Positions 6,565 through 15,633 of a DNA stretch of 16,909 bases are shown piece by piece. The DNA comes from a virus. The notes under the pieces were generated by a model that worked only from the letters and a program-made list of their open reading frames with translations, had not been told where the DNA came from and did not search any database. The stretch is from UHGV virus genome UHGV-0043514; one strand, given 5' to 3'. Both the position numbers and the translations under genes were made by a program. The first letter of the stretch is position 1. Every line of letters begins with the position of its first letter.

Positions 6565-7215
6565 TTAAGGAAGGTTTGCTAGCTTGGCATCAACGACAAC
6601 GCCAATGATTTTACAGTTCCCATTGATTTCAATCATTGGGTATTGTGGATTGAGTGGTTTCAGGAATTTTCTACCGGCATCAATAACTAACTTTTTGAAT
6701 GTCGCCTCGTTTTCTCCTTCAAGTTTGGCGACTACCAGCTTTCCATTACGTGGTTCGACTTCTGGGTCGACGAGAATAATCATCCCCTCAGGAATACTCA
6801 GTCCTGCCGGGGCAGTCATTGAATCGCCTTTAACGTCGAGCCAAAAAGAGTCTTCAGAACAATCTACCGTTGTGTCGTACCAGTTATCTATTGCACGCCT
6901 ATGATATGGCTCTACAGCTTCCATCCAACATCCTGCGCTTACCCAACTAATTAGAGGATACGAACCTCTTGGATCATGCCTGCTGTGATAGGCAATGTTT
7001 GAAAGACTATCCTCTCCTTTCAACAGGTAATCAGGGGAGCACTGCAAAGCCTTGGCTAAGGCCAATAGGTTTTCGCCATTGGGCTCAGTTTCAGATCGCT
7101 CCCATTGGGAAATAGCAACATTAGACACGCCAACCATCTTGCCAAGGGCAGCCTGCCTAATCTTGAGTTCTTTTCTGCGAGCGCGAATACGCTCACCCAT
7201 CAGTTGTGTATTCAT
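6565..7215 (-). CDS. cI: Phage repressor, P22 C2 type (216 aa): N-terminal helix-turn-helix, C-terminal LexA-like autopeptidase domain
   Basis: MNTQLMGERIRARRKELKIRQAALGKMVGVSNVAISQWERSETEPNGENLLALAKALQCSPDYLL... matches P22 C2 as recalled; catalytic-domain motifs GDSM and KLVVAKLEGENEATFKKL. Confidence 0.93.
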   Translation of the reverse strand: MNTQLMGERIRARRKELKIRQAALGKMVGVSNVAISQWERSETEPNGENLLALAKALQCSPDYLLKGEDSLSNIAYHSRHDPRGSYPLISWVSAGCWMEAVEPYHRRAIDNWYDTTVDCSEDSFWLDVKGDSMTAPAGLSIPEGMIILVDPEVEPRNGKLVVAKLEGENEATFKKLVIDAGRKFLKPLNPQYPMIEINGNCKIIGVVVDAKLANLP

Positions 7216-12290: not shown

Positions 12291-12320
12291 TTGACGCGAT
12301 GATTTATCCGGGGCTATATT
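12291..12320 (+). promoter_or_regulatory. Sigma70-like promoter (TTGACG, 17-bp spacer, CTATAT/TATATT) immediately after ninE
   Basis: -35 TTGACG at 12291-12296; -10 CTATAT at 12314-12319; predicted start near 12327. Confidence 0.5.
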
Positions 12321-12381
12321 CCCAGCATGCCAGCAAAATCTGGCGTCGGGATTGGCGTCCCGGATAGAGACCGCGACAGAC

Positions 12382-12404
12382 ACACGCCGCGAGCGTGTTT
12401 TTTT
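12382..12404 (+). terminator. Strong intrinsic terminator (ACACGC-CGCGA-GCGTGT followed by T7)
   Basis: 6-bp GC-rich stem, 5-nt loop, then tttttttatt; about 75 nt downstream of the predicted start of the 12291 promoter. Confidence 0.6.
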
Positions 12405-12565
12405 ATTGTCGAATGCACGCGCACATCTGAATTATGGTGGGCTGTGTGGGGGCGGAGAGATCCGCGCCGGTCGGTTTCCCGGTTACGCCAACCCTGCACA
12501 GTTCACCACCAGACGATTGGCGTCGTCGGTGGTGAGTTATTTAGAAACCACTCGAGGGCGTCATT

Positions 12566-13246
12566 ATGACAACTCAAATCTCTGTTGAAACTCTCTCCCC
12601 GATCACCCATAACCAGATTCCTGTTATTACCACCGAACTTTTGGCGCAGCTTTATGGCACAGAAATTCTGAACATCCAGGTTAACTTCACCAGAAACAAA
12701 GAGCGTTTTGTCGAAGGAAAGCACTTTTTTAAAGCATCTGGTGAGGAATTAAAAAATTTGCGACTTACTTTAAGTAAGTCACAAAACCCCATATCTCCCA
12801 AAGCCCGCTCCCTTATCCTCTGGACAGAACGCGGAGCAGCCCGTCATGCAAAAATGCTCGAAACCGATCAGGCGTGGGATGTGTTCGAAAAACTGGAAGA
12901 CTGCTATTTCAGCGAGTGCGAGAAAAATACTGGCAAACAAGAGAAGAAGCCCAACGGGCTTTCCGCAAAAGAAACAGACATCCTTGTATGGCTGTGGGAT
13001 TATGCCAACCGCTCACAGGCATTGTTCCGTGAGTTGTATCCCGCATTAAAACTGATTCAGTCTGGCTATTCCGGCATATGCCACGACTACGGCTATGAGT
13101 TCTCGTATATCATCGGGAGGGCGAGGGGCGTTTTAATTAATCACACGCGGGATATAGATATTTATGAGCCTGACGGGCCGACGAACCTTCTGGCATGGGA
13201 AAGGCTTAAGAACAAAGAGTTGCCGCCTTCACTGCATCGCTACTGA
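12566..13246 (+). CDS. ORF6N-domain (KilA-N-related) phage regulatory / antirepressor-like protein with an unassigned C-terminal half (226 aa)
   Basis: N-terminal half ([16 protein letters not shown]...[19 protein letters not shown]...[38 protein letters not shown]) fits the ORF6N pattern as I recall it; residues from about 120 to 226 match nothing I recognise; GAGGG Shine-Dalgarno 7 nt upstream. Confidence 0.6.
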
Positions 13247-13263
13247 CAATTGACAACTTAACA

Positions 13264-13288
13264 AACCCAGCTTCGGCTGGGTTTTTTA
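13264..13288 (+). terminator. Intrinsic terminator (AAACCCAGC-UUCG-GCUGGGUUU followed by T-run), bidirectional in form
   Basis: Perfect GC-rich stem with UUCG tetraloop, flanked by an A-run upstream and T6 downstream; 18 nt after the ORF6N gene stop. Confidence 0.6.
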
Positions 13289-13314: not shown

Positions 13315-14043
13315 ATGACAATGAATGAGCTGATAAATAACAATGCCATCAAAATGACAAGCATTGAAATCGCTGAGTTGGTGGGAAGCCAACACGGTAA
13401 TGTCAGAATATCAATAGAACGTCTGGCAAAGCGTGGGGTGATTCAACTTCCTCCAATGCAAAAAGTTGAAAATAAACAAACAATTAGCCCTAACAAATTC
13501 ACAAGCGTGTATATATTCGAAGGCGAACAAGGTAAGCGCGATAGTATCATTGTCGTCGCCCAGTTGTCGCCAGAGTTCACCGCTCGCCTTGTTGACCGCT
13601 GGCGAGAACTCGAAGGGGCAACCGCGAAAATCCCACAAACCTTCTCTGAAGCATTGCGCCTCGCGGCTGACCTTGAAGACCAGAAGGCTGAACTGGAGAA
13701 ACAGCTTGCTCTCGCAGCACCTAAAGTTGATTTTGCCGATCGCGTTGGCGAGGCCAGCGGAATTTTGATTGGAAACTTTGCAAAGGTTGTTGGAATTGGT
13801 CCAAACAAACTGTTTGCGTGGATGCGCGATCACAAAATCCTTATTGCTTCAGGTTCCCGGCGCAATGTGCCAATGCAGGAATATATGGATCGCGGCTATT
13901 TCACAGTGAAAGAAACAGCGGTCAACACAAATCACGGAATACAGATATCGTTCACTACAAAAATCACCGGACGTGGCCAACAGTGGCTGACCAGAAAGTT
14001 GCTCGATAACGGAATGCTGAAAGTAACAGGGGAGGCTGCTTAA
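13315..14043 (+). CDS. Phage antirepressor-type protein: Rha-family N-terminal domain plus KilAC C-terminal domain (242 aa; start may be ATG 13321 or 13354)
   Basis: N-terminus MTSIEIAELVGSQHGNVRISIERLAKRGVIQ (Rha-like); C-terminus DFADRVGEASGILIGNFAKVVGIGPNKLFAWMRDHKILIASGSRRNVPMQEYMDRGYFTVKE (KilAC pattern); GAGAGG Shine-Dalgarno suits ATG 13321. Confidence 0.8.
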   Translation: MTMNELINNNAIKMTSIEIAELVGSQHGNVRISIERLAKRGVIQLPPMQKVENKQTISPNKFTSVYIFEGEQGKRDSIIVVAQLSPEFTARLVDRWRELEGATAKIPQTFSEALRLAADLEDQKAELEKQLALAAPKVDFADRVGEASGILIGNFAKVVGIGPNKLFAWMRDHKILIASGSRRNVPMQEYMDRGYFTVKETAVNTNHGIQISFTTKITGRGQQWLTRKLLDNGMLKVTGEAA

Positions 14044-14692: not shown

Positions 14693-14877
14693 ACGCCACA
14701 ATTCAAACGATACCAGAACTTCTTATCCAGACACGAGGCAATCAGACCGAAGTGGCAAGGATGCTTTCCTGCGCAAGAGGAACAGTGCTCAAGTACAACC
14801 GAGACAGCAAAGGTGAGCGTCACGTAATAGTTAACGGCGTCCTGATGGTCAAACAGGGCAAGAGGGGTAGACCATGA
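14689..14877 (+). CDS. ninH: NinH-like protein (62 aa)
   Basis: TIPELLIQTRGNQTEVARMLSCARGTVLKYNRD...VIVNGVLMV parallels lambda NinH (TIPDMLVEAYGNQTEVARRLKCSRGTVRKY...) as recalled. Confidence 0.75.
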   Translation: MNATIQTIPELLIQTRGNQTEVARMLSCARGTVLKYNRDSKGERHVIVNGVLMVKQGKRGRP

Positions 14878-15497
14878 GACTCGAAAGTGTAGCTAAATTT
14901 CATTCGCCAAAAAGCCCGATGATGAGCGACTCACCACGGGCTACGGCTTCTGACTCTCTTTCCGGTACTGATGTGATGGCTGCTATGGGGATGGCACAAT
15001 CACAGGCCGGATTCGGAATGGCTGCATTCTGTGGTAAGCACGAACTCAGCCAGAACGACAAACAAAAGGCTATCAACTATCTGATGCAATTTGCACACAA
15101 GGTATCGGGGAAATACCGTGGTGTGGCAAAGCTCGAAGGAAATACTAAGGCAAAGGTACTGCAAGTGCTCGCAACATTCGCTTATGCGGATTATTGCCGT
15201 AGTGCCGCGACGCCGGGCGCAAGATGCAGAGATTGCCACGGTACAGGCCGTGCGGTTGATATAGCCAAAACGGAGCAGTGGGGGAGAGTTGTTGAGAAAG
15301 AGTGCGGAAGATGCAAAGGTGTCGGCTATTCAAGAATGCCAGCAAGCGCCGCATATCGCGCTGTAACGATGCTAATCCCAAACCTTACTCAACCCACCTG
15401 GTCACGCACTGTTAAGCCGCTGTATGACGCTCTGGTGGTGCAATGCCACAAGGAAGAGTCAATCGCAGACAACATTTTGAATACGGTCACACGTTAG
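14874..15497 (+). CDS. Q: Late-gene antiterminator Q, lambda type (207 aa)
   Basis: MRLESVAKFHSPKSPMMSDSPRATASDSLSGTDVMAAMGMAQSQAGFGMAAFCGKHELSQNDKQKAINYL... matches lambda Q as recalled, including the Zn-finger region CRDCHGTGR...CGRCKG. Confidence 0.93.
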   Translation: MRLESVAKFHSPKSPMMSDSPRATASDSLSGTDVMAAMGMAQSQAGFGMAAFCGKHELSQNDKQKAINYLMQFAHKVSGKYRGVAKLEGNTKAKVLQVLATFAYADYCRSAATPGARCRDCHGTGRAVDIAKTEQWGRVVEKECGRCKGVGYSRMPASAAYRAVTMLIPNLTQPTWSRTVKPLYDALVVQCHKEESIADNILNTVTR

Positions 15498-15539: not shown

Positions 15540-15568
15540 TTGACTTTTTGAATAAAGTTGGGTAAATT
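15540..15568 (+). promoter_or_regulatory. Late promoter pR' (TTGACT, 17 bp, TAAATT) with the overlapping Q-utilisation (qut) region
   Basis: -35 TTGACT at 15540-15545, -10 TAAATT at 15563-15568; immediately downstream of Q, as in lambda. Confidence 0.75.
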
Positions 15569-15604
15569 TGACATCAACGATGGATAAATGCACTCGTTAA
15601 ATAA

Positions 15605-15633
15605 AGCCCTGAGTTAATAGCTCGGGGCTTTTT
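15605..15633 (+). terminator. tR'-type intrinsic terminator (AGCCCUGAG-UUAAUAG-CUCGGGGCU followed by U5)
   Basis: 9-bp stem (one G-U pair), T-run 15629-15633; would give a pR' leader RNA of about 60 nt unless Q-modified polymerase reads through. Confidence 0.65.

Follow-up and report, generated by a model that had tools for sequence, protein, structure and literature searches.

A predicted IsrK-C4 RNA switch upstream of an antirepressor gene in a lambdoid prophage of Escherichia coli

Organisation of the promoter-to-terminator unit

A short promoter-to-terminator unit at positions 12291-12404 of the virus genome UHGV-0043514 was analysed; the whole 16.9-kb stretch (16,909 nucleotides, nt) is called the window here and provides the coordinates used throughout. 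Judged from its sequence, the unit is almost certainly the Escherichia coli prophage orthologue of the Salmonella small RNA IsrK and the first part of a switch like that of the immI region of P1, composed of IsrK, the antisense RNA C4 and an antirepressor gene (ant). An earlier note on this DNA had described the unit as a promoter feeding directly into a strong terminator. Its features are listed below, the names of the recognition sites (a1, b1, a', b', a2 and b2) being taken from P1.

12291..12320, plus strand: sigma-70 promoter found by the promoter scan (-35 hexamer TTGACG at 12291-12296, 18-nt spacer, -10 hexamer TATATT at 12315-12320)
12327..12404, plus strand: IsrK-family small RNA of about 77-78 nt (Rfam isrK, RF01394), which would also be the 5' leader of read-through transcripts
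12327..12346, plus strand: hairpin 1 of the predicted fold, with a stem of 7 base pairs (bp) and the loop CAAAAU
12347..12362, plus strand: hairpin 2 of the predicted fold, with the stem CGGG/CCCG, presenting site a1 in its loop
12351..12358, plus strand: site a1, AUUGGCGU, in the loop of hairpin 2, complementary to segment a' of C4
12368..12373, plus strand: site b1, AGACCG, in the single-stranded spacer, pairing with b' in the loop of C4 hairpin 2 with one G-U pair
12382..12404, plus strand: intrinsic terminator of IsrK found by the terminator scan (stem ACACGC/GCGUGU, loop CGCGA, six U)

The promoter matches the consensus at 10 of 12 positions, a score reached by only two sites in the window, and promoter-like sites as a class were not enriched there (14 found against 22.8 expected from shuffled sequence). 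It had been read earlier as TTGACG-17-CTATAT; the site itself stands, and its register has to be shifted by one base, since the conserved arrangement is an 18-nt spacer followed by TATATT or TATAGT, as found in Gifsy-1, Izhakiella, Pectobacterium, Limnobaculum and the annotated promoter P51b of P1. The hexamers and their spacing are kept in all of these and in Salmonella. What speaks for this promoter is therefore that it is conserved and homologous to the isrK promoter and P51b, and not that it matches the consensus. By sequence comparison, 12291-12320 appears to be the homologue of the Gifsy-1 isrK promoter and of P51b (P1c4), and we infer that it is active in the E. coli prophage as well, by analogy with Gifsy-1, where downstream transcription was lost upon deletion of the isrK promoter (Hershko-Shalev et al. 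2016, PMC4825925). The distance from the -10 hexamer together with the Gifsy-1 numbering would place the start of the transcript at 12327.

The predicted fold from 12327 consists of two adjacent hairpins, a 19-nt spacer and the terminator. The small hairpin reported in the earlier note was found at 12347-12362. The stem and loop that it gave for the terminator are likewise present (ACACGC-CGCGA-GCGTGT, 12382-12398) and are followed by six T (12399-12404), the seventh U of the earlier count being the closing U of the stem. This terminator would both end IsrK and limit transcription into C4 and ant. The open reading frames (ORFs) that start at 12327 and 12352 extend across both the terminator and C4 and were rejected as genes, in agreement with the earlier view that no real ORF lies inside the unit.

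RNA families and the genes downstream

A scan of the window with Rfam at curated thresholds gave three matches, all of them on the plus strand. The isrK family (RF01394) matched 12327-12403 over the full length of its model (1-77 of 77) with 73.6 bits against a cut-off of 50 (E = 2e-14), which corroborates the plus-strand small RNA of about 78 nt proposed earlier to start near 12327, the Gifsy-1 orthologue being itself a small RNA. The c4-a1b1 family (RF03163) matched 12314-12366 (49.8 bits, cut-off 46.7) and the C4 antisense RNA family (RF01695) matched 12430-12513 (66.7 bits, cut-off 45). The following features were found downstream of IsrK.

12430..12513, plus strand: C4-type antisense RNA gene (Rfam C4), 26 nt 3' of the IsrK terminator
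12434..12535, plus strand: 33-codon ORF overlapping C4, with its AUG in the 5' strand of the C4 stem; positional equivalent of orf45 of Gifsy-1
12472..12478, plus strand: C4 segment b', CGGUUUC, in the loop of C4 hairpin 2 (folds and alignments)
12485..12491, plus strand: C4 segment a', ACGCCAA, in the single-stranded junction of C4
12516..12523, plus strand: site a2 in the ant leader, AUUGGCGU, an exact repeat of a1
12544..12549, plus strand: site b2, GAAACC, 4 nt 5' of the ant Shine-Dalgarno sequence
12554-12558, plus strand: ant Shine-Dalgarno sequence GAGGG, read from the sequence
12566..13246, plus strand: AnrP-like antirepressor gene ant, the putative regulated output (Pfam ORF6N, 2.3e-21; P22_AR_C, 2.8e-23)
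13263..13284, plus strand: intrinsic terminator closing the isrK-C4-ant unit (terminator scan), a 9-bp stem followed by a T run

The C4 stretch showed what is expected of this family, namely a long stem that closes it, two hairpins inside this and a junction left single-stranded; its fold energy was -44.5 kcal/mol (z = -4.2) and all three stems covary. The annotated ends of P1 C4 would put the mature RNA at about 12436-12510. In P1, C4 is freed from a longer precursor by RNase P processing. A C4 promoter of its own within 12405-12430 was considered and rejected, because by eye no -10 sequence was acceptably placed to start transcription 5' of the C4 stem. The ant gene begins 53 nt after C4 and has 226 codons.

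The region of a1 is a 10-nt direct repeat with 12515-12524 and an inverted repeat with 12485-12494, and both C4 segments, a' and b', are complementary to two sites, a2 and b2, where ribosomes would bind for the first gene downstream, and to a second, upstream target copy (a1 and b1). Relatives have b2 overlapping either the Shine-Dalgarno sequence or the AUG, as in TCACCATG (locus L034) and TCACAATG (Izhakiella), and it abuts or overlaps one of the two in every class examined. Hairpin 1, the C4 gene, the second site b and the loop repeat at 12515-12524 were all missing from the earlier note.

Two further pairings were noticed in this region. An antiterminator pairing of a1 (GGCGU) with the terminator (ACGCC) was dropped, being not kept in other specificity classes when these were read by eye. 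The second is a possible alternative 8-bp helix between the 3' strand of the C4 closing stem (UCACCACC, 12503-12510) and a downstream copy of the C4 5' strand (GGUGGUGA, 12528-12535), with a2 in its loop. In the set of 17 relatives described below, 98.5% of this helix is paired and three of its eight pairs are changed on both sides; in the P1 sequence a similar helix can be drawn that has one mismatch. The helix may serve as a folding switch of the precursor or as a processing signal.

Covariation of the recognition sites across relatives

Relatives were gathered in three ways. The first data set contained 80 viral-contig loci found via the antirepressor protein; the region is present in every one of the 80, starting at its first base in 76, and the set reduces to 35 different sequences and 8 different C4 cores. 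The second contained 46 loci, with one genome per species. A pair of Rfam isrK and C4 matches 5' of an ant-like gene was found in Izhakiella, Salmonella, Serratia, Pectobacterium, Limnobaculum, Celerinatantimonas and Escherichia, and a set of 17 sequences from seven or more genera was used for alignment. The third was an independent survey, anchored on the hairpin-1/hairpin-2 motif and not on ant, which gave 119 loci, 111 of them parsable.

In the 17-sequence set the a sites were taken by fixed anchors, a1 as the 5 nt after GGGATT, a2 as the 5 nt after the first GATT 3' of C4, and a' as the 5 nt before AAC in the C4 junction. In all 17 sequences (17 of 17), which represent 11 types, a1 and a2 had the same 5-mer and a' its reverse complement, with a single G-U exception. 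All cells of the a1:a' helix were paired (100%), five of its seven pairs being changed on both sides, and the a':a2 helix was 99% paired with four of six pairs changed on both sides. When the partner was slid by one to three columns as a control, pairing of the whole structure fell to 34-43%.

The b sites vary in length, and for this reason each C4 loop was scored by the energy of its duplex with the target regions of its own locus and with those of other loci. For b1 (13 types) the mean was -11.1 kcal/mol within the locus versus -5.9 kcal/mol across loci, and for b2 it was -12.9 versus -9.1 kcal/mol; none of 100000 permutations was as good in either case. The independent survey gave similar values for b1 (20 types; -10.8 versus -5.4 kcal/mol). 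In this survey a1 matched a' in 110 of the 111 loci, and so did a2; nine a types and 20 b' loops occurred in 27 combinations, each b' loop was matched by its own b1 and b2, and the permutation tests of the b sites again gave 0/100000. These results show that selection keeps a1/b1 and a2/b2 complementary to C4.

The other parts of IsrK behaved differently from one another. Compensatory changes were found in five of the seven pairs of hairpin 1 (97.5% of cells paired), which, together with the a sites of the survey, provides the covariation across homologous prophages that the earlier note had asked for. The sequence of hairpin 1 is invariant across all specificity classes of E. coli, and it is therefore not a specificity element. 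Its candidacy as a C4 target, suggested by the family name c4-a1b1, was rejected since the C4 loop varies and hairpin 1 does not; the true second site is the spacer, where the P1 annotation places b1. The stem of hairpin 2 (CGGG/CCCG) is nearly invariant, with one G-U change in 17 sequences, and hence uninformative, its loop being the variable a1. Every surveyed locus (111 of 111) had at least five T in a row, taken as a proxy for the terminator, at the terminator position, and the stem took several different sequences. Where lineages differ in this stem the terminators do not align in a reliable register, so that the figure of 82% pairing obtained for them is too low. Two 5' hairpins, a spacer and a Rho-independent terminator, which are expected of IsrK, are present in the window, although the terminator stems differ between lineages.

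The loop of hairpin 1 (GCAAAAUC; GCAAAUUC in P1, where the hairpin lies at 23231-23250 of locus L128) is conserved in P1 and in E. coli, Salmonella, Serratia and Izhakiella even though it is not itself a target of C4. Hfq binding is named in the Rfam description of the isrK family, and Hfq binding or protection of the 5'-end would be guesses for the role of this loop.

The observations above bear on whether the promoter and terminator stand together by chance, or merely serve as a nin-region terminator for early transcription with no discrete RNA made. Promoter-like matches that are no commoner than in shuffled sequence and an unremarkable fold energy would fit such an explanation; it is nevertheless hardly credible in view of the full-length match to a curated RNA family, the promoter register conserved across genera, the compensatory changes in hairpin 1 and the covariation of the recognition sites in three copies.

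A third exact copy of the a site (ATTGGCGT) was found in the cI repressor gene (window 6572-6606, minus strand), at the 3'-end of the cI mRNA. An AAACC sequence 21 nt further on mimics the a2-b2 spacing, and the conserved peptide IIGV is encoded by this copy. A phage whose C4 is identical and whose cI allele differs lacks the copy, which was judged to be probably a coincidence.

Comparison with the immI region of P1 and P7 and proposed mechanism

The order of the parts in the window is that of the immI regions of P1 and P7 (RF01695, RF03163). The GenBank record of P1 gives the promoter P51b (P1c4), a1, b1, c4, a2, b2 and icd-ant, with C4 repressing icd-ant via a2 and b2. P1 and the window agree in that the loop of hairpin 2 holds a1 and the next spacer holds b1, at a matching relative position; in that C4 folds alike, a hairpin loop containing b' and the junction a'; and in that a2 follows C4 directly and b2 is at a ribosome-binding site. 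This ribosome-binding site is that of icd in P1, whereas in the window, which has no icd gene (no icd-like ORF was found in the 53 nt between C4 and ant), b2 is at the ribosome-binding site of ant itself. P1 also gave a sub-threshold isrK match of 35 bits that includes a terminator-like hairpin before c4; this terminator is weak in P1 and strong in the window, where it has six U. Further differences are the length of the antirepressor gene (226 codons in the window against about 347 for ant1 of P1) and the host element, a lambdoid prophage as opposed to a plasmid prophage. A counterpart of the second promoter and operator of P1 (P51a/Op51) was not noticed in the window, where no search was aimed at them.

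Taken together, these likenesses make it quite likely that the locus works as a switch of the P1-immI type, in which C4 blocks ant and IsrK is the matched decoy. The promoter at 12291-12320 would fire from about 12327, as its homologues in Gifsy-1 and P1 have been shown experimentally to do. Most transcripts would end at 12382-12404 and give an RNA of about 77 nt, with a1 in a hairpin loop and b1 in the single-stranded spacer, and a fraction would read through the terminator and carry C4 (12430-12513) and the ant mRNA. Segments a' and b' of C4 would then pair with a2 and b2 and block translation of ant, because b2 lies just 5' of its ribosome-binding site. IsrK, bearing the same two sites, would compete for C4, so that an excess of IsrK would free the ant leader and allow the antirepressor to be made; the latter would inactivate a prophage repressor and favour induction, as AnrP does in Gifsy-1.

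The complementarity and covariation of C4 with the ant leader are direct observations, and the repressive effect is expected from P1; in the same manner, pairing between IsrK and C4 is seen both here and in the Gifsy-1 mutants, and it suggests a decoy. The direction of control, with C4 as the repressor and IsrK as the decoy, is probable by analogy with the work on P1 and Gifsy-1. A decoy and a repressor account for the covariation of all three copies of the sites, which the published Gifsy-1 model does not require, and they are independent of orf45, which is not conserved.

Comparison with IsrK of Gifsy-1

Gifsy-1 (NC_010392) has the same three Rfam matches, equally ordered and spaced, with AnrP (STM2616) after them, and its C4-type RNA lies 25-26 nt 3' of IsrK, as in the window, which for its part has an isrK-like promoter sequence and an AnrP-like gene downstream. 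The two IsrK sequences are about 91% identical, 7 of 77 positions being different by hand count, 5 of them in b1; the -10 region, the context of the start, both hairpins, the a1 loop UUGGCGU and the terminator sequence are the same. The first 118 residues of the antirepressor show 71% identity to AnrP and both proteins have the ORF6N domain, while their C-termini differ (P22AR_C in the window). The specificity of the b sites also differs, with CGGUUUC, GAAACC and AGACCG in the window and CGGUGAU, AUCACCG and UCACCG in Gifsy-1. The module lies 5' of the Q gene, after ninE, in the window and 3' of Q in Gifsy-1. A homologue of isrJ was sought after ant in the window and none was found, unlike in Gifsy-1.

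In Gifsy-1, IsrK is a small RNA and also the leader of the isrK-anrP transcript (PMC4825925), which bears out the earlier suggestion that read-through is linked to the antirepressor gene downstream. Its promoter drives the short RNA and, by partial read-through, a long transcript that is translationally silent; IsrK supplied in trans raised anrP translation about 140-fold (139-fold) and transcription only 8-fold (PMC4825925). IsrK binds the C4 region and the mutation G31A abolishes this binding, G28A and G31A abolish activation, C159U and C162U derepress, and in double mutants repression was restored only partly (PMC4825925). AnrP leads to prophage induction, and a stable downstream RNA, STnc1160, depends on the isrK promoter (PMC4825925).

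When these positions are aligned with the window, G28 and G31 map to the a1 loop and C159 and C162 to the C4 junction a' (ACGCCAA), and the first AUG of orf45 (position 107 in the published numbering) corresponds to the AUG in the 5' strand of the C4 stem. From this mapping, the published "helix b-I" is the a1:a' pairing of a C4 system, and STnc1160 is the C4 homologue. The complementarity of the middle hairpin of IsrK to the orf45 region (G28/G31 with C162/C159) is found in the window as the same UUGGCGU/ACGCCAA pair, and it covaries.

The authors of the Gifsy-1 work favour a structural switch in cis together with coupling via orf45 (PMC4825925). According to their mechanism, a1 is paired in cis to the C4 region in an inactive structure A of the read-through transcript, IsrK acting in trans brings about structure B with orf45's ribosome-binding site opened and its translation coupled to ant, and C4 is not a free antisense repressor. 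Direct mutational, gel-shift and 30S footprint evidence was obtained for this switch (PMC4825925), which also accounts for the phenotype of G28A in cis, and the window has the same a1:a' complementarity and an AUG at the equivalent place, 12434. However, translated orf45 coupled to the antirepressor gene is not what we found in the window. The ORF at 12434 stops 30 nt before the AUG of ant, no Shine-Dalgarno sequence was obvious by eye in the 14 nt 5' of its start codon, and its equivalents have from 3 to 119 codons in the 17 relatives, with no conserved frame; it was rejected as a gene on account of its length and frame and is probably not a conserved one. Moreover, the cis switch does not explain why a2 and b2 change along with a' and b', as they do, the region scores as a C4 RNA with covarying stems, and the double mutants restored repression only in part. 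We thus regard the published mechanism, taken unchanged, as an unlikely explanation of the E. coli locus.

Several observations weigh, in turn, against IsrK being a decoy for a repressing C4. Besides the preference of the Gifsy-1 authors, the a1 mutation G28A in cis lifted basal anrP translation from 4 to 93 units in Gifsy-1 (PMC4825925), a result that the decoy leaves unexplained because a pure decoy model predicts a fall, and extra STnc1160 worsened IsrK toxicity instead of relieving it (PMC4825925). These two results make it likely that folding of the precursor in cis contributes. In the window, the pairing of b1 and of b2 is short (6 bp) and that of b1 includes a G-U pair, and when the duplex search was left unconstrained, cross-locus sites just as good were sometimes found for b2. 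Expression records for the E. coli locus were sought and none was found in the sources searched. The fold of the 78-nt RNA is unremarkable and no more stable than shuffled sequences (z = -0.88), so that thermodynamics alone would not single it out; the support for the structure comes instead from the covariance-model score (73.6 bits, E = 2e-14) and the covariation of hairpin 1.

Control at the terminator and genomic setting of the module

The CI RNA of P4, with seqA and seqC, is also a processed antisense RNA between upstream and downstream complementary sites, as C4 is here, and seqA is considered a structural homologue of IsrK by the Gifsy-1 authors (PMC4825925). Control in P4, likened here from its description in the discussion of that paper, consists of premature transcription termination of the replication genes (PMC4825925). 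A P4-like control could accordingly be imagined, and was raised by the same authors by analogy with P4 CI and seqA (PMC4825925), in which C4 pairs with a1/b1 on the nascent RNA, alters the efficiency of the IsrK terminator and so regulates its own synthesis and that of ant, IsrK being mainly a by-product. The end of b1 only 8 nt before the terminator stem and the T run always present between b1 and C4 are consistent with this idea, but no conserved pairing that competes with the terminator was found, the pairing of a1 with the terminator is not kept in other classes, and IsrK in trans acts far more on translation (139-fold) than on transcription (8-fold; PMC4825925). We consider such control improbable.

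The genes around the module have a lambdoid order, with a CI-like repressor, a replicative DNA helicase, NinB, a Dam methylase and NinE before it, and a second antirepressor, YbcO, RusA, NinH, Q, a late promoter-terminator unit and likely lysis genes after it; the helicase gene was named by identity with, and the likely lysis genes from, the annotated homologous locus L001. The module is thus in the nin region, between ninE and the Q gene (14874-15497). The second antirepressor-type gene (13315-14043), with a Rha-like N-terminus and KilAC, lies beyond the terminator at 13263-13284 and hence outside the IsrK-C4 unit. The other promoter-to-terminator unit, at 15540-15631 between Q and a likely holin ORF (15932), consists of TTGACT-17-TAAATT, a 13-bp stem and a T run, and is the expected late promoter with a short terminated RNA of the lambda 6S or StxS type. 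No tRNA genes were found when sought in the window.

Like IsrK, lambda 6S RNA and StxS have a constitutive promoter and a terminator within about 80 nt and give a small RNA in lysogens. These RNAs follow Q, precede the lysis genes and are read through by Q-modified polymerase, and it is the separate unit at 15540-15631 that has this place in the window; the IsrK element is not directly 3' of Q and 5' of lysis genes, as a Q-dependent late-promoter RNA would be, and no relation between it and the 15540-15631 unit was detected. The earlier note had proposed that the unit might be a leader and that N- or Q-modified RNA polymerase, by reading through its terminator, might gate the antirepressor genes. 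The location of the module in the nin region between ninE and Q would suit this proposal, as would the passage of N-modified early rightward transcription past the terminator that is expected from lambda biology during lytic growth, and one paper describes the IsrK promoter as regulated by antitermination. Nevertheless, such passage is a property of the location and not of the transcripts of this promoter; no nut-like or Q-binding feature was identified at the promoter, where no search was aimed at such features; the window has its late promoter and terminator elsewhere, after Q; the module works 3' of Q in Gifsy-1 and on the P1 plasmid, so that its position relative to N and Q is not conserved; and the covariation points to RNA-RNA pairing as the conserved control. 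No sign was found that N- or Q-modified polymerase gates transcripts from this promoter, the evidence favouring instead the C4 RNA 26 nt downstream, and gating of this kind appears very unlikely.

Distribution and implications

The 371-bp region of the module was found in 427 phage records, many of them of Shiga-toxin converting phages, and in 1532 of 5426 complete E. coli genomes, in up to seven places per genome. The element as such is already known, both RNAs belonging to curated families, its orthologue having been studied, and the Rfam-based annotation of O157:H7 EDL933 listing isrK twice and C4 once. What is new is that the experiments on Gifsy-1 IsrK are mapped onto the a/b scheme of C4 and that b1 is placed in the spacer of IsrK; the lack of conservation of orf45 and the size of the repertoire of two-site specificities among E. 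coli prophages are likewise new, as refinements of a known system. IsrK of Salmonella and C4 of P1, which are separate entries in a 2025 review, are joined in this way, whereas the Gifsy-1 paper has only the analogy with P4 seqA and CI (PMC4825925).

Many Shiga-toxin-converting and other lambdoid prophages of E. coli carry the module, and antirepressors can induce prophages without DNA damage; in Shiga-toxin phages this would bring about release of the toxin as well. A system of three RNA sites with exchangeable specificity leads to testable predictions on which co-resident prophages induce each other. We tentatively put forward, as an idea with a little less than even chances, that IsrK-type RNAs are address-matched decoys for their own C4 and that the two sites form a combinatorial code reshuffled by recombination among lambdoid and Shiga-toxin prophages. 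If this were so, co-resident prophages would be insulated or coupled for antirepressor release, and hence for induction, purely by RNA pairing, and the published mechanism by which IsrK acts on its own mRNA would amount to relief of C4 repression.

Variants of the arrangement were seen in some relatives. One viral contig (L141) has two complete IsrK-C4-ant modules 3.2 kb apart (3965 and 7227), which share the a type (GGCGT) and differ in their b types. In another contig (L221, 7959) the module is cut off just after C4 and is followed by an a2 of a different type, with no ant gene.

Other small RNAs also occur next to antirepressor genes. The sar RNA of P22 controls translation of an antirepressor, as the RNAs do here, and is made from the opposite strand of the ant leader; no match to sar was obtained in the Rfam scan of the window. 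A match to sRNA-Xcc1 (Rfam) at the position of C4, about 120 nt 5' of an ant-like gene and without an isrK match, was found in Pectobacterium, Entomohabitans and Desulfovibrio (loci L084, L087-L092, L096, L112 and L113), and one Pectobacterium locus (L100, 1384-1455) has a P22-type sar RNA on the opposite strand in place of C4. Antirepressor genes seem to have repeatedly recruited different small-RNA controls.

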